Positions 14,942 through 40,503 of a stretch of 64,000 bases of DNA are shown one piece after another (positions within the stretch are counted from its first letter, which is position 1; each line of letters opens with the position of its first letter). The notes below the pieces were generated by a model. The model was not told where the DNA came from, did no database searches, and was given only the letters and a program-made list of their open reading frames with translations. The translations under genes and the position numbers were made by a program. The stretch lies in NCBI GenBank assembly GCA_902595855.1, contig CACJRY010000003.1:57098-121097 (forward strand), given 5' to 3'. Source of the stretch: an uncultured Alphaproteobacteria bacterium (GTDB lineage Bacteria > Pseudomonadota > Alphaproteobacteria > HIMB59 > GCA-002718135).

Positions 14942-14988
14942 AATTTCCTCTTTAATCAAAAAATTAAAATTTATAAGTAAATACTATC

Positions 14989-22921: not shown

Positions 22922-24048
22922 TCCAACTCAAAGGCATGACATGGGATCATTCAAGAGGTTATGACCCAATGATTGCTACAAGTGATTTTTTTTCAAAAAA
23001 ACATAATAATAAAGTTCAAATAAACTGGGAAAAAAGATCATTACAAGCATTTGCAGACAGACCAATAGATCAAATGGCAGATGAATATGATTTAATGGTC
23101 ATTGATTATCCGCATGTTGGGGAAGTGTCAGCTAAAGGTTTATTGCAAAAATTTGATGTTGATGAATACCAAAGTGAATTAAATTTATTGAAAGAACAGT
23201 CTGTAGGACTCTCTCATCAAAGCTATAATATTGATGGTCATCAATGGGCATTAGCAATTGATGCGGCAACTCAGGTATGTTGTTTTAGAAAAGATTTAAT
23301 ACCCTTTTTACCACAATCTTGGAACGAACTTTCAAATTTAGCTCAACAAAATAAAGTTCTTTGGCCTTTAAAGCCAGTACATGCAATAAGTAGCTTTTAT
23401 AGTATTTACAATAATATTACTGATGAGTTTAATCCTAAAGACAAAAATTTTATAAATAAAGAATTTGGAATTAAGACATTAGAAATGATGAAACATATAA
23501 CAGAACATTTAATTAGTGATTGTTTCATAATGGATCCAATCAAAACTGCAGAAATTTTATCATCTACTGATGATTTTTATTATTCACCTTACACATATGG
23601 ATTTTCAAATTACTCCCGAGAAAATTTCAGAGAAAATATTTTAACATATGGTAATGTTATGGACTTATCAAATAAAGGCCCTAAAGGAACCCATTTAGGC
23701 GGAACTGGAATTGCAATATCTAATAAAAGTTATCATAAAGATCTTGCATTAGAATATAGTTATTGGATTGCAGGGGCTGATTGTCAAAAATCAATTTTCT
23801 ATAAAAGTGGGGGGCAGCCAGGTAATTCTATTGCATGGGAAAATCAGCAAATAAATGCTGAATGTAATGGATTTTTTACTAATACAAGATTAACGTTAAA
23901 TCAAGCCTGGATCAGACCAAGACATAATGGGTATATGAAGTTTCAAGATGAAAGTGGAGAGATTATTAATGAATACCTTCAATCAAATACTAATGAAGAC
24001 ATTATCATTGATAAGTTAAAAATTATGTATGCAGAAAGTTTTGAATAA
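22918..24048 (+). CDS. cytoplasmic (signal-peptide-less) family-1 solute-binding-protein-fold protein, function unknown
   Basis: 376 aa. The N-terminus [25 protein letters not shown] has no hydrophobic leader. SBP_bac_1-like blocks are present: [25 protein letters not shown] and [30 protein letters not shown] overlap with the upstream gene. Confidence 0.55.
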
Positions 24049-24052
24049 TAAG

Positions 24053-25201
24053 ATGTCTAGACCTTTGGAAGGATTAACAGTTCTAGAATTTAGTCAATTT
24101 TTGTCAGGACCATATGCCGGTCTACGATTATCTGATTTAGGAGCAAGAGTTATTAAAATTGAGAGACCTGAAGTTGGAGATCTATGCAGGACACTTTACA
24201 TTAGTGATACTGATTTAGAAGGGGATAGCACTTTATTTCATGCAATTAATCGTAATAAGGAGAGTTTTGCTGCAAATTTAAAGGACCCTAAAGATTTGGA
24301 TTTAGTTAAAAAACTAATAACCAAAGCTGATATTATTACTCAAAATTTTAGACCAGGCGTTATCGAAAAGATTGGCCTTGATTATGAAAGTGTAAAAAAA
24401 ATAAATTCAAAAATTGTTTATGGCTCAATCTCTGGTTATGGTTCTGAGGGACCTTGGAAAGATTTACCAGGACAAGATCTGCTTGCTCAATCAAGAACAG
24501 GTTTAGTTTGGTTAAATGGAAATGGTGGTGAAGCACCCACACCAATGGGTTTAGCTGTCGCTGATATGCTTGCCGGACATTCTCTTGTTGAAGGAATTTT
24601 GTCAGCTGTAATTAAAAGATTTAGGACTAATGAAGGATCTCATATTGAAACAAGTTTAGTCGAGGCACTGCTAGATTTTCAATTTGAAGTTTTAACTACA
24701 TATTTTAATGATGGAAATAGAAAACCAGTAAGAAGCAAATATAATAATGCTCATGCTTATTTATCCGCTCCTTACGGAATTTATAAAACAAAAGATGGTT
24801 TTGTTGCAATTGCGATGACACCACTGCCAAAACTTGGTGAATTATTAGATCTTGAATTTTTAAAAAATATGCATGATCAAAAAAAATGGTTCACTGAAAG
24901 AGATGAAATAAAGAAAAAGATTGGAGATTGGGTGAACGCACAAACTACATCCCACATATTAAGTATTCTTGAGCCTGCTGATATTTGGTGTGCGGAAGTT
25001 TTAGATTGGGAAAAAATGTTAAAACATGAAGGTTTTAAAATTTTAGATATGACCCAGCGAATTATAGGAGTTGATGGATTGAATATTGAAACACTAAGAT
25101 GCCCAATAAGAGTTAATGGAAAAATATTTAAATCAGAGAAAGCTGCTCCAAAGGTGGGACAAGATAATGAAAAAATAATAGCAGAAATGAATATTGTATG
25201 A
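24053..25201 (+). CDS. family III (CaiB/BaiF) CoA-transferase
   Basis: The N-terminal block PLEGLTVLEFSQFLSGPYAGLRLSDLGARVIKIERP is a hallmark of the family. The ATG at 24053 is preferred to the track start at 24029, which overlaps the upstream gene. Confidence 0.85.
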   Translation: MSRPLEGLTVLEFSQFLSGPYAGLRLSDLGARVIKIERPEVGDLCRTLYISDTDLEGDSTLFHAINRNKESFAANLKDPKDLDLVKKLITKADIITQNFRPGVIEKIGLDYESVKKINSKIVYGSISGYGSEGPWKDLPGQDLLAQSRTGLVWLNGNGGEAPTPMGLAVADMLAGHSLVEGILSAVIKRFRTNEGSHIETSLVEALLDFQFEVLTTYFNDGNRKPVRSKYNNAHAYLSAPYGIYKTKDGFVAIAMTPLPKLGELLDLEFLKNMHDQKKWFTERDEIKKKIGDWVNAQTTSHILSILEPADIWCAEVLDWEKMLKHEGFKILDMTQRIIGVDGLNIETLRCPIRVNGKIFKSEKAAPKVGQDNEKIIAEMNIV

Positions 25202-26304
25202 AGATTACTGATATAGAAATACGCGCATGTCGTCATAGGGATCCTGTAATGAAAGACTCAGAGATGCGTGATGGAAAAAAATCAGATTTAGAATTTTTAG
25301 TAGTAACTTTTCACACAAATGAAGGTTTAAGCACATCTACTTTTGGTTTTGCAGGAAGAGGAGCATCGATGGCAGGAGAAATAGCTAATAGTATTTTCAA
25401 ACCATTTTTTATTGGTAGAGATCCTTTATATAGGGAAAAGCATTGGCATGAATACCGAATGGCAGATCGATGGTGGAATCATGCTCCGATATATAGTTAT
25501 GGACCTTTTGATATTAATTGTTGGGTTTTATCATCTCTACAAGCAAGTCAGCCGTTATATAAATATTTAGGCGCGTATAGAGATCAAGTTCCAATTTATG
25601 GAAGTTCTCTTGTTTATAAAACACCAGAGCAATATGCAAAAGAGGCGAAAGAATATCAAAATAAAGGTTTTAATGCTTATAAAATTCATCCTCCTGGAAC
25701 ATACGATTTAGATTTAGAAATTCATAAAGCTGTAAGATCAGCTGTGGGTAATGATTTTAAATTAATGAGTGACCCTGTAGCTCCATATACTTTTGAGCAA
25801 GCTTTGCGTTTAGGAAGAGAATTAGAAAAATTAAATTATTACTGGTATGAAGAACCATTATTTGATGAAAACTTTCATAACCTTAGAGAATTAACAAGAA
25901 TATTAGATATCCCAATTATTGGTACTGAAGTAATTGCAAAACATCCCTACAGTGTTGCAGAATGTATTTCGACTAGAGTAGTTGATATGGTTAGAGCAGA
26001 TGTATCTTGGAGTGGTGGTATCACCGCAACAATGAAAACTGCTCACTTAGCTGAAAGTTTTGGTGTTCAGTGTGAAATTCATACAGCAATTTATCATCCT
26101 CTAGAATTGGTAAATTTACATTGTTGTGCTGCAATAAAAAATTCAGAATTTTTTGAGGTTCTTGTTCCTTACGATTATTTCGATTTTGGGTTAAAGGAAA
26201 AAATAAAAGTTGAAAATGGTTCTGCACAATTGCCTTCTAAACCCGGTCTTGGTATTGAATTAGATTGGGATTTTATTGATAACACTACTTTCAAAAAATT
26301 TTAA
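25198..26304 (+). CDS. enolase-superfamily protein, specificity unknown (atypical K-x-H)
   Basis: 368 aa with blocks YKIHPPG (K-I-H where FucD has K-V-K), LMSDP, WYEEP, GTE, DMVRAD and CEIHT. It overlaps the CoA-transferase gene by 4 nt. Confidence 0.75.
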   Translation: MKITDIEIRACRHRDPVMKDSEMRDGKKSDLEFLVVTFHTNEGLSTSTFGFAGRGASMAGEIANSIFKPFFIGRDPLYREKHWHEYRMADRWWNHAPIYSYGPFDINCWVLSSLQASQPLYKYLGAYRDQVPIYGSSLVYKTPEQYAKEAKEYQNKGFNAYKIHPPGTYDLDLEIHKAVRSAVGNDFKLMSDPVAPYTFEQALRLGRELEKLNYYWYEEPLFDENFHNLRELTRILDIPIIGTEVIAKHPYSVAECISTRVVDMVRADVSWSGGITATMKTAHLAESFGVQCEIHTAIYHPLELVNLHCCAAIKNSEFFEVLVPYDYFDFGLKEKIKVENGSAQLPSKPGLGIELDWDFIDNTTFKKF

Positions 26305-26306
26305 CA

Positions 26307-27608
26307 ATGACTAAAATTTTAAGATTTACAGTTGAGGATATTAGATTTCCAACATCAAAAGATCTTACAGGCTCTGATGCAATTCATACTGATCCAGATT
26401 ATTCCGCTACATATGTTACTGCTTATACTGATGACTCAAATCTGAAAGGTTATGGAATAGCTTTTACAATAGGAAAAGGTAATGACATTGTTGCAGAGTG
26501 TATTAAATATTTTTTTCCAACTTTTGAAAATATGAATTTGGATGACATAGAAAATGATATTGGAAAACTCTGGTATAAATGCGTTGACCATAGTCAACTT
26601 AGATGGCTTGGTCCTGAAAAGGGAGCAGTCCATATGGCGGTCGCAGCTATATTTAATTGTCTATGGGATTTAATTGCCAAGAAAAATAAAAAACCACTTT
26701 GGAAGTTTGTAGCAGAAAGTGATCCAGAAAAAATACTTAGTTGGTTAACTTTCAAGTATATTGAAGATGTTTTAACCCCGGATCAGGCTTTAAAAATTTT
26801 AAAAGATAGTCAAAATGATAAAAAAGCAAGAATAGATAAAATTTTAAAAGAAGGTTATCCTTCTTACACTACAGCAGCTGGTTGGCTTGGTTACTCAGAT
26901 GAAAAAATAGTAAAACTATGTAAAAAATATATTTCTATGGGTTGGAAACATTTCAAAGTTAAAGTTGGTTTGGATCTAGAGGCCGATGTAAAAAGACTTG
27001 AATTAATAAGAAAGACAATAGGTGATGACTGTCATATTATGGTTGACGCTAACCAACAATGGAGTGTGGAACAATCAATAAAGCATATTAATGCTTATAA
27101 AAAATTTAATTTATTATTTGTTGAAGAGCCTACAAGTCCAGATGACGTACTAGGTTTTGTAAAAATAAAAGCATCAGTAGGAAATGTTAAGCTTGCAACC
27201 GGAGAAGCTTGTGGTGGCAGAGTTATGTTTAAGCAATTTTTAGAGTCAGGATCTATGAATGTGTGCCAAATTGATAGTTGTCGCATTGGCAGCATTAATG
27301 AAATTTTAACTGTAATGCTAATGGCACATAAATTTAAAGTACCAATCTTCCCTCATGCTGGAGGAGTTGGTTTATGTGAGTATGTCCAACATTTATGTAT
27401 GATTGATTATGTACTTATAAATGGAGATAAAAATAATAAATTTGTTGAATATTCTGATCAACTACATGAGCATTTCATATATCCATGTAACTTAAAGGAT
27501 GGTAATTACATGCCACCTTTAGATCATGGATATTCTATTGAAATGAAAGAAAACTCTGTTAAGGAGTTCTCTTATCCTCATGGATTTTATTGGCAGAGTA
27601 ATAAATGA
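26307..27608 (+). CDS. fucD: L-fuconate dehydratase
   Basis: 433 aa, co-linear by eye with Xanthomonas campestris FucD. Shared blocks: IRFPTSKDLTGSDAIHTDPDYSATYV, SQLRWLGPEKGAVHMA, GYPSYTTAAGWLGYSDEK, FKVKVG, VDANQQW, VEEPTSPDDVLG, FPHAGGVGLCEYVQHL. Confidence 0.9.
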   Translation: MTKILRFTVEDIRFPTSKDLTGSDAIHTDPDYSATYVTAYTDDSNLKGYGIAFTIGKGNDIVAECIKYFFPTFENMNLDDIENDIGKLWYKCVDHSQLRWLGPEKGAVHMAVAAIFNCLWDLIAKKNKKPLWKFVAESDPEKILSWLTFKYIEDVLTPDQALKILKDSQNDKKARIDKILKEGYPSYTTAAGWLGYSDEKIVKLCKKYISMGWKHFKVKVGLDLEADVKRLELIRKTIGDDCHIMVDANQQWSVEQSIKHINAYKKFNLLFVEEPTSPDDVLGFVKIKASVGNVKLATGEACGGRVMFKQFLESGSMNVCQIDSCRIGSINEILTVMLMAHKFKVPIFPHAGGVGLCEYVQHLCMIDYVLINGDKNNKFVEYSDQLHEHFIYPCNLKDGNYMPPLDHGYSIEMKENSVKEFSYPHGFYWQSNK

Positions 27609-28342
27609 GACTAACAAATAAAAATATTATAGTAACTGCTGCAGCTCAAGGTATTGGCAGGGCTACTGCAATAGCTTTTGCAAATGAAGGTGCAAATGTC
27701 ATTGCAACAGATATAAATGAAGATAAGCTTAAAGAAATTTCAAAAGAAAATAAAAATATTCAAATGCAAAAACTTGATGCAACTAGCAAAACTGAGGTTG
27801 AGGATTTTTGCTCGAATATAAATGAAATTGACATATTATTTCATGCTGTGGGCTTTGTTCACCATGGTAATATAATGGATTGTGATACTGAGGAATTTTA
27901 TAGATCAGTAAATGTAAATATTTACTCTGCTTATTTAATGACTCATAATTTATTACCCAAGATGCTGAAAAATAAAAAAGGAAACATCATTATAGTCTCT
28001 TCTGCGGCATCAAGCGTAAAAGGTGTACCAAATAGATTTATCTATGGAACAACAAAAGCGGCACTCAATGGGTTTGTAAAAGCTCTAGCCGCAGATTATG
28101 TTGGTCAGGGGATAAGATGTAACGCTATTTTGCCTGGTACAGTTGAAACACCTTCTTGGGAAGGGAGAGTGCAAATGGCTGATGATCCAAAAAAAGCTAG
28201 AGAAGATTTTATAGCAAGACAGGCAATGGGCCGTCTTGCTCAACCAAGTGAGATTGCATCAATGGCACTTTATTTAGCAAGTGATGAATCTGATTTTGTG
28301 ACTGGAACACTTAATTTAATTGATGGAGGATGGACTTTATAA
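27605..28342 (+). CDS. short-chain dehydrogenase, 2-keto-3-deoxy-L-fuconate/rhamnonate 4-dehydrogenase-like
   Basis: 245 aa classical SDR with TAAAQGIGRA and YGTTKAAL (YxxxK). Its position directly after fucD matches the published fuconate operon logic. Confidence 0.7.
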   Translation: MRLTNKNIIVTAAAQGIGRATAIAFANEGANVIATDINEDKLKEISKENKNIQMQKLDATSKTEVEDFCSNINEIDILFHAVGFVHHGNIMDCDTEEFYRSVNVNIYSAYLMTHNLLPKMLKNKKGNIIIVSSAASSVKGVPNRFIYGTTKAALNGFVKALAADYVGQGIRCNAILPGTVETPSWEGRVQMADDPKKAREDFIARQAMGRLAQPSEIASMALYLASDESDFVTGTLNLIDGGWTL

Positions 28343-29190
28343 TGAAAACACTAAGATATAGAATTGGTAATGAGGTTAAGCCAGGAATTTTAGATTCTGA
28401 TGAAAACATACTTGATGCTTCCAGTTTGGTTTCTGATTGGGATAATGAAAATGTAACAACAGATAAGTTGAATGAATTAAAAAATAGTGATTTGAGTTCT
28501 CTCCCAAAAGTAGATAAAATTGATAGTATAGCTCCTTGTGTATGTAAAAAAAGTGTTGGAAAATTTATTTGCATAGGTCTAAATTATTCTGATCATGCAG
28601 AGGAAACTGGAATGGAAGTTCCTCCTGAGCCAATTATTTTTTTTAAAGCTACGAGTGCTATTATTGGACCTAACGATAATGTAATCATTCCAAAAAATTC
28701 TAAAAAATCAGATTGGGAAGTTGAGTTAGGAATTGTAATTGGAAAAGAAGCTAAATATATTTCTGAAGACCAATCACAAGATCATATAGCAGGTTATTGT
28801 GTTGTGAATGATTTAAGTGAGAGAGCTTTTCAATTAGAACATTCTGGACAATGGGTAAAAGGAAAATCTTGTGATACTTTCGGACCTATAGGTCCATATT
28901 TAGTAACTAAAGATGAAGTTTCTGATCCTCAAAATTTATCAATGTGGTTAGAAGTTAATGGAAAAAGGATGCAGGATGGTTCAACCAAAACAATGGTTTA
29001 TGGTGTTAATTTTTTAGTTAGTTATTTAAGTCATTTTATGTCTTTACAGCCTGGTGATATTATTTCGACAGGAACACCACCAGGAGTTGGTATGGGTTTA
29101 AAACCACAGACATTTTTAAAACCTGGTGATGAAATGAAGCTTGGCATTGAAGGATTGGGTACTCAAACTCAAAAAACAATATCTGCATAA
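28342..29190 (+). CDS. fumarylacetoacetate-hydrolase-family protein, 2,4-diketo-3-deoxy-L-fuconate/rhamnonate hydrolase-like
   Basis: FAH-family blocks GLNYSDHAEE, DWEVELGIVIGK and GDIISTGTPPGVG. The ATG at 28342 overlaps the SDR stop (TAATG); the track start at 28330 adds 4 aa. Confidence 0.7.
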   Translation: MKTLRYRIGNEVKPGILDSDENILDASSLVSDWDNENVTTDKLNELKNSDLSSLPKVDKIDSIAPCVCKKSVGKFICIGLNYSDHAEETGMEVPPEPIIFFKATSAIIGPNDNVIIPKNSKKSDWEVELGIVIGKEAKYISEDQSQDHIAGYCVVNDLSERAFQLEHSGQWVKGKSCDTFGPIGPYLVTKDEVSDPQNLSMWLEVNGKRMQDGSTKTMVYGVNFLVSYLSHFMSLQPGDIISTGTPPGVGMGLKPQTFLKPGDEMKLGIEGLGTQTQKTISA

Positions 29191-30344
29191 TGTTTGGTGG
29201 AATAGAAAATTGTCATAACGTTAAAGATTTTAGAAAATTAGCTAAAAAAAAATTACCAAGTCCCATTTTTCATTACATTGATGGCGCGGCTGATGATGAG
29301 ATTACTTATAAAAGAAATACAGATTCTTTTGACTCATGCGATTTAGTTCCTAATGTTTTATCTGGAGTAGATAAAATTGACATGTCTACAACAGTTATGG
29401 GACAAAAAATTGATATACCTTTGTATTGTGCTCCAACTGCTCTTCAGCGATTATTTCATTATGAGGGTGAAATCGGTGTTGCTAAAGCGGCTGAAAAATA
29501 TGGCACCATGTTTGGCATTTCCTCTTTAGGTACAGCGAGTATTGAAGAAATATCAAATTTAGTATCAACACCAAAATTATTTCAATTATATGTTCATAAG
29601 GATGAGGGTCTAAACAAAGATCTAATTGATAGATGTAAAAACTCAAATTTTGAAGCTATGGCAGTAACAGTAGATACAGCTGTTGGAGGTAATAGAGAAA
29701 GAGATCTTAAAACAGGTTTTACAATACCAATGAAACTTTCTTTAAGTAGTGCTATTAGTTTTGCCACACACCCATCATGGGCCTTTAATTATTTTACAAA
29801 ACCTAAATGGGAATTAAGCAATTTAAAAAATCATATTGCAGCAGGAACAAGTGTAATGACAAGCATAGGTGATTATTTTACTCAGATGTTAAATAATTCT
29901 CTTGATTGGAAAGGAGTTGAAAAAATTAATAAAGAATGGGGCAAACAATTTGCTATTAAAGGAATTATGTCTGTAGAGGATGCAAAAAAAGCAGTTGATG
30001 TTGGAGCAACTGCAGTAATGGTTTCAAATCATGGAGGAAGGCAACTTGATGGATCAAGATCACCATTCGACCAACTTGCCGAAATAGTTGATGCTGTTGG
30101 TGATAAAATTGATGTTATTTGTGAGGGAGGAATTCGAAGAGGTACACACGTTTTAAAAGCTTTATCACTTGGAGCGAAAGCCTGTTCAGGAGGGAGAATG
30201 TATCTTTATGCATTGGCTGCCGGAGGACAAAAGGGAGTTGAAAAAACTTTATTTAATCTTAAAAATGAAATTGAAAGAGATATGAAATTAATGGGCGTTT
30301 CTTCAATTGATCAATTAACGCGAAAAAATTTAAAGTTTAGATAA
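29190..30344 (+). CDS. lldD: FMN-dependent alpha-hydroxy-acid dehydrogenase, L-lactate dehydrogenase-like
   Basis: 384 aa with the family block VSNHGGRQLDG. TAATG overlap with the hydrolase gene. L-lactate is the expected product of the upstream hydrolase. Confidence 0.7.
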   Translation: MFGGIENCHNVKDFRKLAKKKLPSPIFHYIDGAADDEITYKRNTDSFDSCDLVPNVLSGVDKIDMSTTVMGQKIDIPLYCAPTALQRLFHYEGEIGVAKAAEKYGTMFGISSLGTASIEEISNLVSTPKLFQLYVHKDEGLNKDLIDRCKNSNFEAMAVTVDTAVGGNRERDLKTGFTIPMKLSLSSAISFATHPSWAFNYFTKPKWELSNLKNHIAAGTSVMTSIGDYFTQMLNNSLDWKGVEKINKEWGKQFAIKGIMSVEDAKKAVDVGATAVMVSNHGGRQLDGSRSPFDQLAEIVDAVGDKIDVICEGGIRRGTHVLKALSLGAKACSGGRMYLYALAAGGQKGVEKTLFNLKNEIERDMKLMGVSSIDQLTRKNLKFR

Positions 30345-30387
30345 AATAAATATTTATTATTTTTAAAATTTATTCTACAATTTTTTT

Positions 30388-30708
30388 ATGAATTTAGAAA
30401 TAGAGCCAGTACATATTGGTCAGGAAGATGACATTGATGTTGGAAGTGTAGAAAATTTTGAACATGAGGAAATAGATTATGCTATTTTTCGCTTAGAGTC
30501 TGGCTTCTTTGCAACTCAAGGGCACTGCAATTGTGCAGACCAAGCCTTTTTAAGTGAAGCTAATGTTGAGGGGGAAGAGCTTGAGTGCGCTAGTTGTGGA
30601 AATACATTTAGTATAGTATCTGGAGATCCCATAAGTGATCCTGAATTACTAGCATTAAAAATTTTTGATATATATGAAGAGGATGGAGACATTTTTTTAA
30701 ATCTCTAA
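30388..30708 (+). CDS. small Rieske-fold-like protein with four Cys in place of the 2Cys/2His ligands
   Basis: 106 aa. The pattern is C47-N-C49-x17-C67-A-S-C70, spaced like the Rieske motif C-x-H-x15-17-C-x-x-H. Flanking sequence (YAIFRLESGFFATQGHC ... IFDIYEEDGDIFLNL) resembles Rieske-type ferredoxins. Confidence 0.5.
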   Translation: MNLEIEPVHIGQEDDIDVGSVENFEHEEIDYAIFRLESGFFATQGHCNCADQAFLSEANVEGEELECASCGNTFSIVSGDPISDPELLALKIFDIYEEDGDIFLNL

Positions 30709-31673
30709 GTTTTAATTTCTAATCTATTAACAATATTATCTGAATTTAATTTACTATCTTTATTTAAGAAATAAATAGTATTTTCAGCAGCTTCTATTGA
30801 CATCCTTTTTCTGCACTCTAATGTTAAAGCAGCATTGTGTGGTGAGAGTAATACATTAGGTAGTTTAAAAATCGGGTGATCTTTATTTGGTGGCTCTATC
30901 TGAAACACGTCCAAAGCTGCACCTCTTATTTTTTTTTCCTTGAGTGTTCTTTCTAAATATTTTTCATGAATAATTCCACCTCTTGCTGTATTAACAATAA
31001 TAGCTGTATCCTTCATAATTAAAAACTCATCTTCACTAATAAAGTTTTTAGTTTTATTATTTAATGGCAGATGTAAGGAAATATAATCAGCTAATTTTAA
31101 ACCTTCAATTTTATCAGATACTTGATACCCATATTTTTCTATTTCTTCTCTATCAATAAATGGATCAACAACATAAATATTCATATCAAAACCTTCACAT
31201 CTCTTCGCTACTTCTTTGCCGATCCTTCCAAAACCAAATATAACTGCATTTTTTTTAAATAATTCAAAAAAATTAGGCAGAGATGATTTCTCACTAAATC
31301 TACCTTCTCTCGTTAGTTTATCAGATAAATGAATATTTTTAGTTAGATATAAGAAGGAAGTTAAAACATGTTCTGCAACACTTATTGCATTAGATTTAGA
31401 AGTTATTCCAAGTGCAATTTTATTTTTATTTAAATATTCTAAATCGACATTATCATATCCGACTCCATGTCTTGTTATAATTTTTAAATTATTACAGTAT
31501 TCAAGAACTTCAGAATGCAAATTTGCAGTCCGTAGAATTATACCATCAACGTTTATTAATTCTTTTTTAAGATTTTCTTCTTCAAAATCGTTAATTTCAA
31601 AGCAATCAAAATTCTCTTTTTTCAGGATTTGCCATCCATCTTCATGAATTTCTCCCATTATTGCTATTTTCAT
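30705..31673 (-). CDS. D-isomer-specific 2-hydroxyacid dehydrogenase
   Basis: 322 aa with blocks GFGRIGKEVAKR, ARGGIIHEKYL, DVFQIEPP and SPHNAALT. Confidence 0.85.
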   Translation of the reverse strand: MKIAIMGEIHEDGWQILKKENFDCFEINDFEEENLKKELINVDGIILRTANLHSEVLEYCNNLKIITRHGVGYDNVDLEYLNKNKIALGITSKSNAISVAEHVLTSFLYLTKNIHLSDKLTREGRFSEKSSLPNFFELFKKNAVIFGFGRIGKEVAKRCEGFDMNIYVVDPFIDREEIEKYGYQVSDKIEGLKLADYISLHLPLNNKTKNFISEDEFLIMKDTAIIVNTARGGIIHEKYLERTLKEKKIRGAALDVFQIEPPNKDHPIFKLPNVLLSPHNAALTLECRKRMSIEAAENTIYFLNKDSKLNSDNIVNRLEIKT

Positions 31674-31794: not shown

Positions 31795-33639
31795 ATGAAA
31801 ACTATAAAATTATCATGTTCGCACGCTTTATTAAAATATTTAATTGCACAAAAAATAATAATTGATGGAAAAAAAGCTCCCTTATTTCCTGGTGCTTTTG
31901 GTATTTATGGGCATGGTAATGTTGCTTGTATTGGTCAAGCAATGGAAGAATTTCAATCTGATTTGCCAGGATATCGTGGGCACCACGAACAAAACATGGC
32001 TTTAACTGGAATTGGTTATTCAAGAGCCATGCGTCGCAAACAAATATTTATTGCTACTTCGTCTGTTGGTCCTGGATCAACAAATATGGTTACTGCTGCT
32101 GCTGTAGCTTTGAGTAATAGATTGCCTCTTCTCTTAATACCAGGTGATACTTTTTCTAGTAGGTTTCCAGATCCTGTTTTGCAACAAGTTGAAAACTTTA
32201 ATTCTCCTACTGAAACACAAAATGATGCATTTAAGTCTGTTTCAAGATATTTTGACCGCATTACAAGACCAGAACAAATTTTATCTTCACTTCCACAAGC
32301 TATTCAAGTTATGTTAGATCCTGCGGATTGTGGGCCTGCAACAATTTCAATGTCCCAAGATGTGCAAGGTGAAGTTTATGATTATCCAGAAGTTTTTTTT
32401 GAAGAAAAAATTCATCAAATAAGAAGAATTTATCCAGATCCTGATCAGTTAAAAGTTGCTGTAGAAAAAATTAAACAATCAACACAGCCAATTATTATAT
32501 CTGGAGGAGGAGTTTTATATTCAGAGGCAGAAAAAGAATTATCTGATTTTGCTAAAAAACATAACATTCCAGTTACATCAACTGTTATGGGAATTGGCTG
32601 TATGACTCATGACAACCCATACTACATTAGTGCGATTGGATGTTTGGGAGAAGGTTCATCGAATAATTTATCTAAAGATACCGATTTAGCTATTGCAATT
32701 GGTACAAAATTAGCGGATTTTACAACAGGTTCGTGGACAAATTTCCAAAATCCAGATTTCAATTTAGTTTCAATTAACACATCAAGATTTGATACAACAA
32801 AACATAGAGCTGCACCCATAGTAAGTGATGCTAAAATTGGCTTACAACAATTATCGGAAGCCCTTGGTGATTGGAAAGCTCCCAATAAATGGTATGAAAT
32901 AGCTATTGAGGAAAGAAAAAAATGGGACTCATATGTTCAAAAAGAAAGCGGTCCTACTAATCAAGAAGTTCCTTCCTATGCTCATGCGGTAGGAGCTGTA
33001 TATCGAAATGCGGATCCTTCAGACATTGTTGTTACTGCTGCAGGTGGTTTAGTTGGTGAGGTTGTTCAAATTTGGAAACCCAAACAATTAAATACTTTTG
33101 AAACAGAATGGGGCTTCAGCTGTATGGGTTATGAAATTTCAGGAGCACTTGGAATTAAAATGGCTAAACCTGATCAAGATGTAGTAGTCTTTGTTGGTGA
33201 TGGATCATATCTTTTACACAACAGTGATATTTATAGTTCTGTTTTATACGATCAAAAATTAATTATTGTAGTTTGTGATAATGGAGGCCACATGGTTATA
33301 AACAGATTACAACTAGCTAAAGGTGGAAAAGAATATATCTGTAATTTGAGAGCTGCGAGAGCAAAAAATTTACAATTTGTTGATTTTGAGTCACACGCAA
33401 AAAGTATGGGCGCTAACTCTGAGAGAGTTAAATCTACATCTGAACTTGAAGCTGCATTTAAAAGAGCAAAAGACTCAGATAAAACATATGTAATTGTTAT
33501 GGAAACTCATGGTTATGAATGGCTAGATGGAACTGCATTTTGGGAGAGCCCAACCTTGATGAATGCGACAAATGAAAACACCAAAAAAGCTCTTGCAGAG
33601 CACACGGAGGGTAAGAGCAAGCAGAGAAAAGGAGTTTAG
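31795..33639 (+). CDS. iolD: IolD-like TPP-dependent 3D-(3,5/4)-trihydroxycyclohexane-1,2-dione hydrolase
   Basis: 614 aa, co-linear by eye with B. subtilis IolD (GHGNV, STSSVGPGSTNMVTAAA, PDPVLQQVE, SRYFDRITRPEQ, ISMSQDVQGE). TPP motif GDGSYLLHNSDIY...CDNGG. RBS GAGGAAG. Confidence 0.85.
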   Translation: MKTIKLSCSHALLKYLIAQKIIIDGKKAPLFPGAFGIYGHGNVACIGQAMEEFQSDLPGYRGHHEQNMALTGIGYSRAMRRKQIFIATSSVGPGSTNMVTAAAVALSNRLPLLLIPGDTFSSRFPDPVLQQVENFNSPTETQNDAFKSVSRYFDRITRPEQILSSLPQAIQVMLDPADCGPATISMSQDVQGEVYDYPEVFFEEKIHQIRRIYPDPDQLKVAVEKIKQSTQPIIISGGGVLYSEAEKELSDFAKKHNIPVTSTVMGIGCMTHDNPYYISAIGCLGEGSSNNLSKDTDLAIAIGTKLADFTTGSWTNFQNPDFNLVSINTSRFDTTKHRAAPIVSDAKIGLQQLSEALGDWKAPNKWYEIAIEERKKWDSYVQKESGPTNQEVPSYAHAVGAVYRNADPSDIVVTAAGGLVGEVVQIWKPKQLNTFETEWGFSCMGYEISGALGIKMAKPDQDVVVFVGDGSYLLHNSDIYSSVLYDQKLIIVVCDNGGHMVINRLQLAKGGKEYICNLRAARAKNLQFVDFESHAKSMGANSERVKSTSELEAAFKRAKDSDKTYVIVMETHGYEWLDGTAFWESPTLMNATNENTKKALAEHTEGKSKQRKGV

Positions 33640-33726
33640 CTCAGAAAGCTTGAAATTGCTTATTTTTCATATTCTAAAAAAAATAACTCGTCTTTACTTT
33701 CTATGATAAAATTTATTATTTTTTAG

Positions 33727-33738
33727 TAAAACGTTTTA
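33727..33738. promoter_or_regulatory. perfect 12-bp palindrome TAAAACGTTTTA upstream of the binding-protein gene (LacI-type operator-like core AACGTT)
   Basis: Read directly from the sequence, about 100 nt upstream of the ATG at 33837 in the longest intergenic spacer of the window. No LacI-family gene is present in the window. Confidence 0.3.
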
Positions 33739-33836
33739 TTAATTAACAACATTTTTCAATTTATACTTGATTTACTTATTGCTCTGAATATTAGTAAATG
33801 GTTAATTATTAATAATTTAACTATTTAGGAGGAAAT

Positions 33837-34742
33837 ATGAAAAAATTTCTACTTTCAATTGTGGCTCTAGTATTCATTACTAGTTCTGCGTACGCTGAGA
33901 GATACGTAATGGTAACTCACGGTGAAGGAAAAGACCCTTTTTGGCCGGTAGTTCAAAAAGGTGGTGAAGATGCAGCTCGTGCAATCGGTGCTGACTTTGA
34001 ATATATATACAACCCTTCTGCTGATATGGCTGATATGGCTAGCTCAATTCAAGCTGCTGCGGCAACTCAACCAGATGGTATGGTAATTTCACTTCCAGAT
34101 CCAGATGCTTTAGGCCCAGCTATTAAAGCTGCTGTTGCAGCTGGTGTTCCAGTAATCACTATGAACTCCGGTTTAGAAAACTCTGCTGCACTTGGTGCCC
34201 TTATGCACGTTGGACAGCCAGAATATCTTGCTGGTCAAAAAGCTGGTGAAAGAGCAAAAGCAGAAGGTGCAACAAAAGCACTTTGTATGATTCAAGAAGC
34301 ATATAATACGGCTCTTGTAGATAGATGTGAAGGTTATGGTGAAGCAGTTCCTATGGAATTCACTGACACTACTTCAGACCCTGCTACTATTCAAACTCGT
34401 GCTACTGCTGCATTACAAGCAAATAGTGATGTTGACGCTATTCTTTCAGTAGGACCTCATGTTTGTGAAGCTGTTGATAAAGCAGTTGCTGATCTTGGTA
34501 TGACAGTTCACCATGCTTGTTTTGATTTAAGTCCTGCAGTTATGGACCTAATCAATGCTGGTAGAGTGTCTTTCACTATTGACCAACAACAAAGATTACA
34601 GGGTTATATGCCAATTATCGTATTACACCTTTATAATAACAGTGCTGGACTTCTTCCAGGAGCTAACATCCCTTCAGGACCAGGCTTCGTTGATAAGTCA
34701 AACGCTTCTTCAGTTGCTGCTCTTGCAGGAATTGATAGATAG
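33837..34742 (+). CDS. periplasmic sugar-binding protein, CUT2 (ribose/fructose-type, Peripla_BP) family
   Basis: 301 aa with signal peptide MKKFLLSIVALVFITSSAYA and a strong RBS AGGAGG. The protein is Ala-rich and the gene is visibly GC-richer, with biased codon use suggesting high expression. Confidence 0.85.
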   Translation: MKKFLLSIVALVFITSSAYAERYVMVTHGEGKDPFWPVVQKGGEDAARAIGADFEYIYNPSADMADMASSIQAAAATQPDGMVISLPDPDALGPAIKAAVAAGVPVITMNSGLENSAALGALMHVGQPEYLAGQKAGERAKAEGATKALCMIQEAYNTALVDRCEGYGEAVPMEFTDTTSDPATIQTRATAALQANSDVDAILSVGPHVCEAVDKAVADLGMTVHHACFDLSPAVMDLINAGRVSFTIDQQQRLQGYMPIIVLHLYNNSAGLLPGANIPSGPGFVDKSNASSVAALAGIDR

Positions 34743-34755
34743 TTTATTAGTTTAA

Positions 34756-34781
34756 GGGCCGATTAATCGGCCCTTTTTTTT
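34756..34781 (+). terminator. intrinsic terminator/attenuator between the binding-protein and permease genes
   Basis: GGGCCGA-TTAA-TCGGCCC stem-loop followed by eight T. It starts 14 nt after the SBP stop and ends 8 nt before the permease ATG. Confidence 0.8.
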
Positions 34782-34789
34782 ATTTATAA

Positions 34790-36385
34790 ATGAATACATC
34801 AACTTCAAATCAACCTAGACAAGAGTCGGATCGACAAGGTCAAAAAAAATGGTATTCCGCTATTACATCACGTCCAGAAATTGGCCCGTTTGGAGTAATG
34901 CTTTTACTTTTCTTTATGTTAGGATACTTCTCTATTCCAGAGGGGCAATTTTCTCTCAACCCATTTGCTGGAGAAGGTTTTAATGCTCTAGGTATAAGAA
35001 ATAATTTTAGAGTTATTGCACAGCTTGGTATAGTTGCTCTTGGAGCTGGGATGCTGATCATTGCTGGTGAATTCGATTTATCAGTTGGGTCTATGATAGG
35101 TTTTGCTGGTGGATGTATGGCGATGATACTCAAATGGGGATTTGCAGTAGTTATTCCTTATATCTCTTTTGACGGCGGTTTTCATTTTGAAGGTTTAAAA
35201 ATATTTGAAATTACAAATGTCTCCCCTTTAACAGCTTTACTAATTACATTGTGTTTTACACTAGCATTTGGTTGGTTTCAGGGATGGCTTATCGTAAAAA
35301 GTGGAATAGCATCTTTTATTGTTACACTAGGTGGATTGTTTTTTTTAAGAGGGGTCACAGAAGTTTCTTACAGAGCATTTAATCGTGCTCCTGATCAAAC
35401 AGCAGGTTCTACAACAGTAACAGAACTTCCAGATATAAAAAATATCATTAATGTTCCAGGACATGGAGAAATGGAAAGAGATGCAGCTAAGATGTTGCCA
35501 AATGATCAGCTATTAGAAATATTGAGTAATGTTCCAGCCAATACTGTTGCCAAGTTAACGGAACAACTCACTTATATAAATGAAAAAGTTGCAGCTAGTA
35601 AGACTGCTCTAGCTTCTAAAAAAATGATTGATACACTAGAAAACTCTCTTGCTGGTGCAAAAAAATCAGGAAATGACTCCATGGTAGAAATTTTGACAAA
35701 AAAAATTGAAGCTGGTGTTGAAGTTCCTGCAGTTGCTGCAAAAGCAGTGACTGATATAGATATAGCAAAAGCTTACATTGATACAATTTATACTGCTAGA
35801 CCTGTAGCAAATTTTTTTGGTGGCGATATTATGGAGCCTGTTTTTGATTGGTTGTACTTTACAGCAGATTGGAATGTAAATAATTATGGAAATATTTTTG
35901 CAAAAGGAATGTATTCATGTTTAATGATATGGTTGCTTTTAGCATTAGTTTGTTATTTTGTATTAAGTAGAACACAAGCTGGTAACTGGATTTATTCAAC
36001 AGGAGGAAATCTTAGTGCAGCTCAAGCCAATGGTGTTCCAACAAACAAAGTTAAAATTTCCTTATTTATGTTTACAGCATTCTGTGCAACCATGTTCGCT
36101 GCTTGTCAAGTATTTGAAGTTAACACAGCTGATACAGCTAAAGGTAATTTAAAGGAATTAGAGGCAATTGCTGCGGCTGTTATTGGTGGCGTTGTACTTA
36201 CTGGAGGTTTTGGAACAATACTAGGGATCATCCTAGGGACAATTATTTTTGGTATAGCAAAAGAAGCCTTCTTTTATATTCCTGGCATTGATGGATCTTT
36301 CTACAGAGTATTCCTTGGCGCAGTACTTGTTGCCGCTGCCCTAACAAATGAGAATATTAGGAAAAGAATAATAGGTAGCATTTAA
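34790..36385 (+). CDS. CUT2-type ABC sugar permease (RbsC/FrcC-like) with a large inserted hydrophilic loop
   Basis: 531 aa. Typical family blocks: AGEFDLSVGS, GGNLSAAQANGVPTNKVK, LEAIAAAVIGGVVLTGGFGT. Residues about 198-373 between hydrophobic segments 5 and 6 are hydrophilic. Confidence 0.85.
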   Translation: MNTSTSNQPRQESDRQGQKKWYSAITSRPEIGPFGVMLLLFFMLGYFSIPEGQFSLNPFAGEGFNALGIRNNFRVIAQLGIVALGAGMLIIAGEFDLSVGSMIGFAGGCMAMILKWGFAVVIPYISFDGGFHFEGLKIFEITNVSPLTALLITLCFTLAFGWFQGWLIVKSGIASFIVTLGGLFFLRGVTEVSYRAFNRAPDQTAGSTTVTELPDIKNIINVPGHGEMERDAAKMLPNDQLLEILSNVPANTVAKLTEQLTYINEKVAASKTALASKKMIDTLENSLAGAKKSGNDSMVEILTKKIEAGVEVPAVAAKAVTDIDIAKAYIDTIYTARPVANFFGGDIMEPVFDWLYFTADWNVNNYGNIFAKGMYSCLMIWLLLALVCYFVLSRTQAGNWIYSTGGNLSAAQANGVPTNKVKISLFMFTAFCATMFAACQVFEVNTADTAKGNLKELEAIAAAVIGGVVLTGGFGTILGIILGTIIFGIAKEAFFYIPGIDGSFYRVFLGAVLVAAALTNENIRKRIIGSI

Positions 36386-37164
36386 TGGAAAGAAAACCAC
36401 TAATAGAAATAAAAGATTTAGTTAAAAAATTTGGATCTTTTACGGCTTTAAATGGTGTTTCTTTAGATGTTTATCCAGGTGAGGTTCATGCACTCTTAGG
36501 AGATAATGGTGCAGGTAAATCAACCTTAATTAAGGTGCTTTCAGGAGTTCACCCAATGACAAGCGGAGAAATTAAAGTTGATGGAGATACAGTCAATTTT
36601 ACTTCTCCTAGACAAGCTTCTGATGCAGGTATTGGAACTGTTTATCAAGACTTGGCATTGAATGCTTTAACATCTGTTACTAGAAATTTTTTTCTTGGTC
36701 GAGAGATTAAAAAAGGACCAGGCCCATTTGGTTTAATGCAAATGGACGAGATGGATAAAATAACTTCCGAAGAAATGTCAAAAATTGGAATAAATATATC
36801 TGACCTAAATCAACCAGTGGGAACGATGTCTGGTGGTCAAAGGCAAACTTTGGCAATTGCAAGAGCAATTTATTTTGGTGCTAAAATATTAATATTAGAT
36901 GAACCTACATCCGCGTTAGGTCAAAAGCAGCAAATGGAAGTTTTAAAAACTATAAAAAAAGTTCAACGTCTTGGAAATATTGCAATCATATTAATCACAC
37001 ACAATGAAATTCATGCACGCCTAATAGCTGATCGATATACTTTTTTAAGTTTAGGTGAAGTAATTGGTTCAGGATTGTCCTCTGAACTTGGCGGTGAAGA
37101 TGTTAAGAGATTGATGGCTGGTGGTGCAGAAATTGGCGATCTTGCTAAAGAATTAGAATTATAG
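36385..37164 (+). CDS. ABC transporter ATP-binding protein, single-NBD CUT2 type (FrcA-like)
   Basis: 259 aa with Walker A GDNGAGKST, signature MSGGQRQ and Walker B ILILDEPTSAL. It overlaps the permease gene by 1 nt. Confidence 0.88.
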   Translation: MERKPLIEIKDLVKKFGSFTALNGVSLDVYPGEVHALLGDNGAGKSTLIKVLSGVHPMTSGEIKVDGDTVNFTSPRQASDAGIGTVYQDLALNALTSVTRNFFLGREIKKGPGPFGLMQMDEMDKITSEEMSKIGINISDLNQPVGTMSGGQRQTLAIARAIYFGAKILILDEPTSALGQKQQMEVLKTIKKVQRLGNIAIILITHNEIHARLIADRYTFLSLGEVIGSGLSSELGGEDVKRLMAGGAEIGDLAKELEL

Positions 37165-37198
37165 TTTTTTTTTATTTTTTTTCATTTAAAATTTATCA

Positions 37199-38047
37199 AT
37201 GCAGAAATTCTTGAAAAATAGTTTTAATATTAATGAAGCGTTAAATGAATTAATGCACGAGTCTGGAGTTATAGTTATTGAAAATGTCTATAACTTAAAT
37301 GATATCAAAGAAGCAAGAGAGATTGTTAATCATTTTGCAGATACGCAAGAACAAAAAGAGTCTCACTTTAATGCGGAGGCTGAAGCATCTGGTAAAATTA
37401 AGCTTCAACAAAGGGTTTGGAATTTATTTGGCAAGGGAGAAGTTTTTAGTAAATTAATTTCAGATGATATTGTTTTTAGTTTAATGTCTAAACTTTTAGG
37501 ATCAGAATTTTTTTGTGGATCTTACTGCGCAAGTAGATTACTACCAGGTTCTCCAGGACAGGAACTTCATCTAGATTATCCATATTGGGATTTTTATAAT
37601 ACCGAGACTTTTCCTATGGGTCTTAATAGTTCATTTGCTCAAAATTGTCAGGCAACAATACCTCTGGATGTTTGTTCAGAAGAATCAGGAGCAACAGCTT
37701 ACATACCAAGATCTCAAAAAAAATTACACTATCCAAATGAAAATGATGATTTTTCAAATAGACAACAAATGATTGCAAATCCTGGAGATTTAGTTTTTTT
37801 TAATGGCAACTGCTGGCATGGAGCCTCACCTAATAAATCAAATCACCAAAGAGCAGCATTATTGATTGAGTTCCTTCCTAAATACATAAAACCAGTTGAA
37901 GATTTAGTCACATATTTATCTGACGAGTTTAAAAATAATTCAAATCCAAAAGTGCGACAACTTTTAGGATTAAATTATGAATATCCAAAAATTATGGATG
38001 TTAGTAAAAAAACAAATAATATTGGTTTAGGTTACAAAGCTAAATAA
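37199..38047 (+). CDS. phytanoyl-CoA dioxygenase (PhyH)-family Fe(II)/2-oxoglutarate oxygenase-like protein
   Basis: 282 aa with facial-triad pattern ELHLDYPYW (H-x-D) and CWHGASPN (distal His), plus a following Arg (NHQRAAL). Confidence 0.7.
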   Translation: MQKFLKNSFNINEALNELMHESGVIVIENVYNLNDIKEAREIVNHFADTQEQKESHFNAEAEASGKIKLQQRVWNLFGKGEVFSKLISDDIVFSLMSKLLGSEFFCGSYCASRLLPGSPGQELHLDYPYWDFYNTETFPMGLNSSFAQNCQATIPLDVCSEESGATAYIPRSQKKLHYPNENDDFSNRQQMIANPGDLVFFNGNCWHGASPNKSNHQRAALLIEFLPKYIKPVEDLVTYLSDEFKNNSNPKVRQLLGLNYEYPKIMDVSKKTNNIGLGYKAK

Positions 38048-38102
38048 AATCTATATTTTTAAGTTAAATTCACTATAAATATTTTAAAATAATAGAATCA
38101 GA

Positions 38103-39248
38103 ATGAAAAACATTGGATTAATAGGATGTGGAAATATTGCTGAAACATATTTTCGATCACAGGATTATTTTAATAATATAAATTTTGTAGCATGCGCTGA
38201 TAAATTTCATGAAGCTGCAATTAAATGCGCTGAACAAAATAAAATTACAGCATTATCAGTTGATGAAATTCTAAAAGATAAGGATATTGATATAATTCTT
38301 AATCTAACAATACCACAAGCACATTTTGAAGTTTCAAAACTAGCCTTAGAGTCTGGCAAGCATGTGTATAGTGAAAAACCAATGTCAATTACATATGATG
38401 ATGCAAAATATCTTCTAGAATTAGCAAGCAAAAATAATCTTTATTTTGGAAATGCTCCAGACACTTTCCTAGGTGGAGGAGGTCAATTATCAAGAGAATT
38501 GGTTGACAAAGATGAGATTGGTAAAATTTTAACAGGAAATTTTATTTTTGCTTTCCCTGGAGTTCATGAATTTCACCCTAATCCAGAATCGTGGTTTCAA
38601 GTTGGTGGTGGTCCTGTAATTGATATGGGACCATATTTTTTCACAACTCTTGTTAATTTGTTAGGACCTGCAAAAAATGTAAGAGCGAGAGGAAAATTGT
38701 TTTCTAATCAACGTGAGTATTTAGTTGGACCTAAAAAAGGTAAATTTTTTGATGTTGAAATACCAACATCCGTTATGTTCGATGTAGAATTTGTGAATGA
38801 AGCTATAGTCCAAGGCTTTATATCATTTGATGTCCAAAATCATGCAAGAAATCATATGGAGTTGTATGGAACTAAAGGATCTTTAGTTGTTCCTGACCCA
38901 AATATGTTTGGAGGACCTGTTCAACTTTCACATGAGCTTGGATCTGAATGGAAAGACCTTTCGGTTGAAAAAAAATACTTAGGTAAAACTAATATTATAA
39001 ATCATAGTGGCCGTAGCAATGAAGCGCCTAGGCAATCAAACTATAGAGGTTTTGGATTAGCTGAAATGATTTACTCAATTGAAAATAATCGTAAGCATCG
39101 CTGTAATGATCAGTTAGCTTTACACGTGTTAGATTTAATAGAGTCTACAATTCTTGCTGCTGAGTCAAAAAAAGAAATTCAGCTAAGATCATCATGTGAA
39201 CAACCAAAGCCCATTACTGAAGAGGAGATAAAAATATTACTAAAATGA
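38103..39248 (+). CDS. Gfo/Idh/MocA-family NAD(P) oxidoreductase
   Basis: 381 aa with N-terminal IGLIGCGNIAETYF Rossmann motif and the EKP block (YSEKPMS). Confidence 0.8.
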   Translation: MKNIGLIGCGNIAETYFRSQDYFNNINFVACADKFHEAAIKCAEQNKITALSVDEILKDKDIDIILNLTIPQAHFEVSKLALESGKHVYSEKPMSITYDDAKYLLELASKNNLYFGNAPDTFLGGGGQLSRELVDKDEIGKILTGNFIFAFPGVHEFHPNPESWFQVGGGPVIDMGPYFFTTLVNLLGPAKNVRARGKLFSNQREYLVGPKKGKFFDVEIPTSVMFDVEFVNEAIVQGFISFDVQNHARNHMELYGTKGSLVVPDPNMFGGPVQLSHELGSEWKDLSVEKKYLGKTNIINHSGRSNEAPRQSNYRGFGLAEMIYSIENNRKHRCNDQLALHVLDLIESTILAAESKKEIQLRSSCEQPKPITEEEIKILLK

Positions 39249-40480: not shown

Positions 40481-40503
40481 TTTATTTTTATTCATAATAA
40501 ATT

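Follow-up and report, generated by a model that had tools for sequence, protein, structure and literature searches.

A conserved Rieske-fold protein of marine Alphaproteobacteria with cysteine at both histidine-ligand positions, encoded beside an LldD-like flavoenzyme gene

Rieske centres are defined by two histidine ligands, which set their high, pH-dependent potentials. Among the small Rieske-fold proteins, NirD proteins generally carry no conserved metal ligands. Of the all-cysteine iron sites, rubredoxin-type Fe(Cys)4 centres have potentials near 0 mV, whereas all-Cys 2Fe-2S centres usually lie below -150 mV. The gene described here was found at positions 30388 to 30708 of the analyzed window, i.e., a 64,000-nucleotide stretch of contig CACJRY010000003.1 from an uncultured Alphaproteobacteria bacterium. 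It encodes a 106-aa protein with a predicted Rieske-ferredoxin fold, in which cysteine takes the place of both histidine ligands (hereafter, the Cys4 protein).

The described precedent for this ligand set is an engineered one. In the archaeal Rieske ferredoxin (ARF) of Sulfolobus solfataricus, the H64C substitution gave a [2Fe-2S] cluster of low potential, bound by three Cys and one His, H44C failed, and H44C/H64C, i.e., the same ligand set as in the natural Cys4 family, was mostly unable to assemble a [2Fe-2S] cluster (PMC2946596). The H44I/K45C/H64C variant produced a mononuclear Fe(Cys)4 or Zn site similar to that of rubredoxin, and the Rieske loops are geometrically akin to rubredoxin and zinc-ribbon knuckles (PMC2946596). 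Beyond this engineering work, neither a natural all-Cys family with the Rieske fold nor the SAR11 Cys4 protein was found described in the searchable full-text literature, and no functional name for the protein was found in database sources.

The open reading frame (ORF; 30388 to 30708, plus strand) encodes MNLEIEPVHIGQEDDIDVGSVENFEHEEIDYAIFRLESGFFATQGHCNCADQAFLSEANVEGEELECASCGNTFSIVSGDPISDPELLALKIFDIYEEDGDIFLNL. The protein has four cysteines, whose codons were read directly from the letters, i.e., C47 (TGC, 30526-30528), C49 (TGT, 30532-30534), C67 (TGC, 30586-30588), and C70 (TGT, 30595-30597), and no further cysteine. The pattern is C-x-C-x17-C-x-x-C. Because 17 residues stand between C49 and C67, the spacing equals that of the Rieske motif, C-x-H-x15-17-C-x-x-H. 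Two metal-binding loops were predicted. Loop 1, C47-N48-C49 (30526 to 30534, plus strand, codons TGC-AAT-TGT), was aligned to C-T-H of BphF and CarAc. Loop 2, C67-A-S-C70-G71 (30586 to 30600, plus strand), is the counterpart of the canonical C-P-x-H-G; in the alignments with solved ferredoxins, it pairs with C-s-l-H and C-p-f-H. The initial annotation of this DNA had read Rieske spacing with Cys at both His positions, and this was borne out by the codons and the alignments.

In the domain search, residues 8-93 matched the Pfam Rieske family (PF00355), whose gathering score is 20.3, with 22.7 bits. The margin is small, and the precomputed PF00355 tag was present on only some close homologues. 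In phmmer searching against PDB sequences, CarAc (1vck) and BphF (1fqt) were hit at E ~1e-8, and BphA3 and TodB were also recovered, with E values from 1e-8 to 2e-4. The alignments to 1fqt, 1vck, 2e4p, and 4emj were gap-free over both ligand loops; in the alignments to solved ferredoxins, C47 and C67 fell on the Cys-ligand positions and C49 and C70 on the His-ligand positions. No Cys4 family member seen carries the Rieske ligand motif of two Cys and two His. The AlphaFold2 model, made with 43 family sequences as input, had a mean predicted local distance difference test score (pLDDT) of 85.8, and of 87-92 over residues 41-80, which cover the ligand loops. When the model was searched against PDB with Foldseek, approximately 20 Rieske ferredoxin structures ranked on top, with a template modelling (TM) score of 0.85-0.88 and a root-mean-square deviation (rmsd) of 1.3-1.9 Å over ~100 residues. 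CarAc, BphF, TodB, and the naphthalene dioxygenase (NDO) ferredoxin were matched at TM 0.87 and rmsd 1.5 Å, and the NirD structures ranked below the ferredoxins, at TM ~0.8. By alignment and by model, the Cys4 protein is a Rieske-ferredoxin fold with Cys replacing both His ligands and with unchanged loop lengths. The profile search, ligand alignment, and structure prediction proposed in the initial annotation therefore came out in its favour, i.e., a Rieske match, a Rieske-ferredoxin fold, and Cys residues placed in the cluster-binding loops rather than away from them.

The protein did not reach the equivalog cut-offs of the NCBIfam models, i.e., MocE (38.2 against 136.15), HcaC (37.2 against 113 and 33.5 against 150), AndAb (32.8 against 150), and the NirD model TIGR02378 (28.7 against 74.65). 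Zinc-ribbon matches were also below threshold (13.1 against 24; LysW, 20.1 against 75), and the Pfam scan of the protein gave no rubredoxin match. The identity of a canonical oxygenase ferredoxin was ruled out by the missing His ligands, the low NCBIfam scores, and the absence of the partners from the 64 kb. The identity of NirD was ruled out by the conserved ligands, the score under the cut-off, and the absence of NirB; no NirB-like gene was found in the 64-kb window. The ligand swap is a variant of the known Rieske fold for which no published description was found, and the protein should be classed neither as a Rieske [2Fe-2S] ferredoxin nor as a NirD or a rubredoxin.

In a word-indexed search of public data, 851 clusters at 90% identity were found. 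Among the best 120 of these clusters, the four Cys were kept in all of the 115 full-length sequences, and residue 71 was Gly in 102 of them. The four Cys were also kept in the 41 distinct coding sequences from the window and the fetched loci. At every Cys site of these sequences, TGT and TGC were switched synonymously while the residue was fixed, and position 48 was free to vary between the invariant C47 and C49. All 41 had a length of exactly 106 aa with zero indels, and the median pairwise ratio of nonsynonymous to synonymous substitution (dN/dS) was 0.08-0.11. The gene is real and under strong purifying selection. Because the four Cys are the only ones in the protein, are invariant, and stand in a gene with low dN/dS, the Cys4 pattern is not a matter of chance. 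Loss of the four Cys among homologues, which the initial annotation had named as evidence that would speak against it, did not occur in any homologue checked. It is extremely improbable that the gene is a decaying ferredoxin relic or a spurious ORF. It is an orphan without canonical partners and its Pfam score is marginal, but the dN/dS of ~0.1, the fixed 106 aa, the invariant Cys with synonymous variation, the 851 clusters, and the confident AlphaFold2 model speak against such a relic; a pseudogene or spurious ORF was ruled out by dN/dS and the fixed length.

The family is a narrow one of marine bacteria. When each GTDB species was scanned with a single genome, 39 loci were obtained, all in marine Alphaproteobacteria, i.e., single-cell genomes and metagenome-assembled genomes (MAGs) of Pelagibacterales/SAR11, MarineAlpha5, and HIMB59, and nothing outside these groups in the species scan. 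In a profile search of 1.84 billion representatives at 50% identity, 208 matches had E ≤ 1e-3, and 28 of them had E ≤ 1e-10. The strong matches were nearly all Cys4 family members or their fragments, with P0121, P0122, and P0126 as full-length representatives. Beyond the family there was a large score gap, followed by canonical C-x-H...C-x-x-H ferredoxins. P0126 is the most divergent member; scanning metagenomes with it gave zero confirmed loci, and its gene context was obtained by exact look-up.

Three further proteins, P0168, P0209, and P0246, also showed an all-Cys pattern (C-x-C...C-x-x-C), but they belong to a different, Rieske_2-like family of ~107-123 aa (with P0289-P0298; loci L044-L047), in which all-Cys members are rare. 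The retrieved relatives of P0168 were without some or all of the ligand residues, in most cases having lost them entirely. The P0168-type gene lies between a pair of esterase and zinc alcohol dehydrogenase genes and a sugar-type ABC transporter. This family looks like independent ligand drift on the Rieske fold, and it was rejected as a clue to the SAR11 function because it is another family in another context. Its relatives show that Rieske folds elsewhere drift to ligand-less forms; the SAR11 family instead holds the four Cys fixed.

The gene immediately 5' of the Cys4 gene encodes an LldD-like dehydrogenase dependent on flavin mononucleotide (FMN), i.e., a 2-hydroxyacid (L-lactate) dehydrogenase of 384 aa and isoelectric point 8.5 (29190 to 30344, plus strand). 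It matched Pfam FMN_dh with 427.6 bits; against the NCBIfam L-lactate dehydrogenase model it scored 298.9 bits, under the cut-off of 376. Since the gene ends at 30344, the gap to the Cys4 gene is 43 nt, the distance after lldD that had first been annotated. In 47 of the 48 loci whose upstream sequence is visible, the FMN dehydrogenase gene stands immediately 5' of the Cys4 gene, on the same strand. The gaps fall into two clusters, 42-43 nt and 59-64 nt, apart from a single gap of 68 nt, and no terminator-like site was found between the two genes. The most divergent member, P0126, is also preceded by an FMN dehydrogenase gene. The P0300 branch is ~49% identical to P0126, and its loci, L050-L053 (e.g., L050, 1639-6603), are ordered as infC, FMN dehydrogenase, Cys4, convergent 2-hydroxyacid dehydrogenase, and IolD. 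The SDR and FAH-family genes, which are present in most loci, are absent from these four. This order indicates that the FMN dehydrogenase/Cys4 pair is independent of the deoxy-sugar genes.

The two neighbouring proteins differ in charge. The Cys4 protein has 26 Asp/Glu against 2 Lys/Arg, i.e., a net charge per residue of -0.23, and is the most acidic of the 61 window proteins, the runner-up being at -0.07. The net charge per residue of the family spans -0.21 to -0.25, and among 67 representatives of canonical small Rieske ferredoxins the lowest value is -0.15 and the median -0.08. The FMN dehydrogenase is among the few basic soluble enzymes of its gene block.

It is tentatively proposed, at less than even confidence, that the Cys4 protein is a metalloprotein with an iron centre and the partner of the LldD-like flavoenzyme, most likely its electron acceptor. 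At the fold's tip, the four Cys would hold the metal centre. The small, extremely acidic protein would be the partner of the mildly basic FMN dehydrogenase. After oxidation of the 2-hydroxyacid (L-lactate), electrons would most likely pass from reduced FMN to the Cys4 protein, and the pair would be a two-protein counterpart of flavocytochrome b2. In its complete form, in which Cys4-ligated iron on a Rieske scaffold, either Fe(Cys)4 or [2Fe-2S], serves as the dedicated soluble acceptor of an LldD-type flavoenzyme in SAR11, the proposal is unlikely. The initial annotation had suggested a neighbouring flavoenzyme or an oxygenase as the partner. The flavoenzyme is supported circumstantially, by the 47 loci and by a pair that outlives the loss of SDR and FAH, whereas the oxygenase is not supported, as no Rieske oxygenase, ferredoxin reductase, or MocD-type desaturase gene was found in the 64 kb. 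The survey of homologues' gene neighbours that it had recommended found the LldD-like FMN dehydrogenase constant, except at one locus.

Several points weigh against an acceptor role beside the flavoenzyme. The exceptional locus, L029 (506-2493; a Pelagibacteraceae MAG from the Eastern Tropical North Pacific (ETNP) oxygen-minimum zone, 150 m), has SDR, FAH, and an intact Cys4 gene, and its FMN dehydrogenase is absent. The FMN dehydrogenase of the window resembles LldD over its whole length (a single stretch against NF008398), and enzymes of the LldD type are generally assumed to need no soluble partner for electron transfer to quinone. Synteny among SAR11 genomes is high, so adjacency within the clade is weaker evidence of coupling than adjacency across phyla would be. 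The ten multidomain representatives scanned did not include an FMN_dh-Rieske fusion; their fusions were of the FA_desaturase-Rieske, Rieske-FNR, Rieske-Pyr_redox_2, protoglobin-Rieske, and glyoxalase-Rieske types. The Cys4 gene may have its own promoter in a conserved element upstream, which would weaken the argument from co-transcription. The metal site is itself a prediction from the alignment and the fold model, and the ARF double mutant with the same ligand set mostly failed to assemble a cluster (PMC2946596).

The nature of the metal bears on these readings. Beside the all-Cys 2Fe-2S centre and the structural Zn named in the initial annotation, a rubredoxin-like Fe(Cys)4 site should be added as a possible third option, because the ARF experiments point there (PMC2946596). 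Since ARF H44C/H64C assembled its cluster poorly, the sequence does not decide among [2Fe-2S], Fe(Cys)4, and Zn. In the acceptor proposal, an iron centre is favoured over zinc, and mononuclear Fe(Cys)4 and all-Cys [2Fe-2S] are about equally likely. Fe(Cys)4 would be the better acceptor from FMN because its potential lies near 0 mV instead of below -150 mV, and it would also fit the ARF results.

The four Cys could alternatively hold structural Zn. The protein would then be a non-redox accessory subunit in which Zn stiffens the loops, i.e., an interaction module of the FMN dehydrogenase or of some other enzyme, as the cluster-less NirD is of NirB. This is somewhat unlikely, and nearly as likely as an iron-centred partner of the flavoenzyme. 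It would agree with the ARF scaffold, whose H44C/H64C form was mostly without cluster and which can carry mononuclear Fe or Zn (PMC2946596). Cluster-less Rieske folds do function, the NirD structures 3c0d and 4aiv match the model at TM ~0.8, and the Rieske_2-like relatives of P0168 have mostly lost their ligands. Residues 49-99 and 67-82 also gave sub-threshold matches to zinc-ribbon families (LysW, E 5e-4; Zn_ribbon_RPAB4, E 0.08), and reductase and oxygenase genes are absent nearby. However, the model is nearer to redox-active ferredoxins (TM 0.87) than to NirD (TM 0.80), a NirD role is not favoured by the TIGR02378 score and the lack of NirB, and the extreme acidity is more typical of electron carriers, though not exclusive to them. 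None of these points against Zn is decisive.

A further reading keeps the redox function and drops the neighbour, i.e., an all-Cys [2Fe-2S] low-potential ferredoxin serving an enzyme elsewhere or the inositol-type island downstream, and not the FMN dehydrogenase. This is quite improbable. The loop lengths are identical to the canonical ones, the BphF alignment is free of indels, and ARF tolerates the single H64C substitution, but ARF H44C and H44C/H64C fail (PMC2946596). The nearest relatives are MocE-like, IolD and MocA- and MocB-like genes adjoin the Cys4 gene, and L029 retains it without the FMN dehydrogenase. Against this, no ferredoxin reductase (Pyr_redox_2 or FNR-type), Rieske oxygenase, or FA_desaturase/MocD-type gene was found in Pfam scans of 57 of the 61 window ORFs; the remaining four match L001 genes called malate synthase, SufE, GalT, and epimerase. 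Outside the block of six genes from SDR to IolD, the flanking genes differ between loci, and the PhyH and Gig2-like dioxygenase genes of the island are missing from many of them.

A metal-free thiol/disulfide protein, cycling through CxC and CxxC, or a redox switch releasing Zn in the manner of Hsp33, was also considered and is very unlikely. CxxC is a classical redox-active motif, and Hsp33 holds a redox-sensitive Zn via C-x-C...C-x-x-C. However, a thioredoxin-like fold and a chaperone-like or reductase context are absent, and the Cys residues sit exactly where the Rieske fold converges on the metal.

A conserved AT-rich non-coding element abuts the ATG of the Cys4 gene (30341 to 30387, plus strand). 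In the alignment of 36 distinct upstream sequences, the consensus of the 45 nt before the ATG was aAAAaAA.TATTTATT-N~10-AAattTATTcTA.aAtTTTttt-ATG. Its core can also be written as TATTTATT ... TTTATTCTA ... TTTTTTT-ATG and was found at the equivalent position in L001-L053, including L029, where it is kept despite a different upstream gene. The element is better conserved than the synonymous sites of the neighbouring coding sequences, which are themselves nearly saturated (proportion of synonymous differences, pS, 0.67). The composite pattern TATTTATTN{9,14}TATTYTA was found twice in the window against 0.11 expected. The second match (58404-58429, plus strand) is at the 5' end of a UbiA gene (57574 to 58434, minus strand), upstream of an RNA methyltransferase gene at 58478.

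Three readings of the element could apply. It could be a promoter of the Cys4 gene, in which TTTATT is a weak -35 and a spacer of 17 nt leads to a -10 (TA[CAG]AAT) that ends 7 nt before the ATG; with a -10 at this place, the mRNA would be leaderless or nearly so. It could also be an operator, with TTTATT repeated directly at a distance of 20 nt, or an unstructured AU-rich leader. A search for RNA structure in the element gave no signal (z = 0.07), and Rfam gave no match to it. The element was missed in the sigma-70 scan, since only 3 of the 6 positions of its -35-like hexamer match.

Upstream of the FMN dehydrogenase gene, SDR and FAH-family hydrolase genes were identified by Pfam matches (27605 to 29190, plus strand), and the genes preceding SDR in the window encode two enolase-superfamily dehydratases. 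The FAH hydrolase scored 378 bits against NF053535 (2,4-didehydro-3-deoxy-L-rhamnonate hydrolase; cut-off 500). By family, the genes of an almost complete non-phosphorylative pathway of L-rhamnose/L-fucose catabolism were found at 6100-16422 and 25198-30344, with most scores below the equivalog cut-offs. They comprise family matches to an Amidohydro_2 lactonase-type gene (6100 to 6948) and to rhaM, L-rhamnose mutarotase (14615 to 14959), as well as four enolase-superfamily dehydratases, the SDR, the FAH-type hydrolase, the LldD-like gene, and two sugar ABC transporters. With these sub-threshold family matches, the gene set adjacent to the Cys4 gene presumably fits a non-phosphorylative L-rhamnose/L-fucose route ending in pyruvate and L-lactate. 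Another module at 22358-25201 consists of a MaoC-like hydratase, an ORF of 376 aa resembling solute-binding proteins (SBP_bac_8), and a family III CoA-transferase; the three genes share a strand and follow each other directly, so that their starts and stops overlap. It adjoins genes of an RraA-like aldolase and an IclR regulator, and it is kept in many related loci.

Downstream of the Cys4 gene, a D-isomer-specific 2-hydroxyacid dehydrogenase gene is placed convergently (30705 to 31673, minus strand; Pfam 2-Hacid_dh_C). The 3' ends of the two genes overlap by 4 nt (30705-30708). The convergent gene was found downstream in 42 of the 44 loci with enough flank, and the stop regions overlap in nearly all loci, by up to 12 nt and usually by 4-7 nt. 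Transcription of the convergent pair may cause interference.

The next gene encodes IolD, 3D-(3,5/4)-trihydroxycyclohexane-1,2-dione acylhydrolase (31795 to 33639, plus strand; TIGR04377, 766.8 bits against a cut-off of 715), and it is the first gene of an inositol-type island. In nearly all loci whose flank was long enough, IolD was found downstream; it was not found in L029. The island (31795-42355) also encodes a periplasmic binding protein, an ABC ATPase, a PhyH dioxygenase, a GFO/IDH/MocA oxidoreductase, a Gig2-like (PF07350) protein, a glyoxalase, and a xylose isomerase. A 531-aa permease in it has two BPD_transp_2 stretches and is possibly fused. Other families named iol did not turn up at 31795-42355, where only a few of the genes were run against NCBIfam.

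The origin of the Cys4 family may lie near MocE. MocE was the best NCBIfam match of the protein (E 1e-9, far under the cut-off), and MocA- and MocB-like genes lie in the island abutting the Cys4 gene. Among the nearest canonical relatives, multidomain fusions were observed (P0158, P0186, P0224, P0205, P0222, P0257, and P0166), i.e., FA_desaturase-Rieske, FA_desaturase-Rieske-FNR (760 aa), Rieske-FNR, protoglobin with tandem Rieske, and Rieske with RTX repeats. The FA_desaturase-Rieske(-FNR) fusions are an arrangement like MocD-MocE-MocF. It is a reasonable lead that the Cys4 family descended from a MocE-like ferredoxin after losing its oxygenase and reductase partners. It is taken only as a lead because the ferredoxin families differ little in score.

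The ligand swap is real, conserved, and ecologically widespread; its chemistry and role we infer. What decides between [2Fe-2S], mononuclear Fe, and Zn has so far been studied mainly with poorly behaved mutants, and a natural, strongly conserved double exchange of His for Cys on an unchanged scaffold is a ready-made test of ligand identity and loop geometry. The host lineages, SAR11 and relatives, are numerically dominant, iron-limited bacteria of the ocean. The metal need of the Cys4 protein and its possible link to 2-hydroxyacid (lactate) oxidation would therefore bear on the economy of carbon and trace metals in the sea. Were the protein the acceptor of the LldD-like enzyme, this would be a new electron exit route for that flavoenzyme family, and a two-protein analogue of flavocytochrome b2, not known before, would be present in the most abundant heterotrophs of the ocean. 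It would also be a natural Cys4 iron site on a Rieske scaffold, which engineers reached only poorly or by redesign.

Among known systems, the Rieske-type oxygenase ferredoxins (BphF, 1fqt; CarAc, 1vck; TodB, 3dqy; T4moC, 1vm9; and MocE, TIGR02377) share with the Cys4 protein a length of ~105 aa, the fold, the loop lengths, and the ligand positions, as well as F-x-[IV]-x-[ST]-G after loop 2. The Cys4 protein differs from them in the two exchanges of His for Cys, in being far more acidic, in its FMN dehydrogenase neighbour, and in having no reductase or oxygenase nearby. The engineered ARF H44C/H64C has the same ligand set, C-x-C...C-x-x-C, and the same scaffold as the natural protein. However, the working mononuclear design of ARF needed C-x-x-C in loop 1, whereas the natural family retains C-x-C. 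Given its strong purifying selection, the natural family presumably carries second-shell adaptations that the ARF mutants lack.

The cluster-less small subunits of the NirD/Rieske_2 type (3c0d, 4aiv) are also small single-domain Rieske folds and accessories of a flavoenzyme, as the Cys4 protein possibly is, but the Cys4 protein has four invariant Cys at the ligand positions, has no NirB, and scores under the TIGR02378 cut-off. In the Cys4 knuckles of rubredoxin and zinc ribbons, four Cys come from two loops at the tips of beta-hairpins, as in the Cys4 protein, and its loop 2, C-[AP]-S-C-G, resembles their C-P-x-C-G knuckle. Unlike rubredoxin, the Cys4 protein has the overall fold of Rieske proteins, and C-x-C instead of C-x-x-C in loop 1. 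Flavocytochrome b2 is a functional analogue, i.e., a dehydrogenase of the FMN_dh family with a dedicated small one-electron acceptor module, an organization that for the Cys4 pair is read from gene order. In flavocytochrome b2 this acceptor is a fused haem b5-type domain, whereas the Cys4 protein would be a separate protein.

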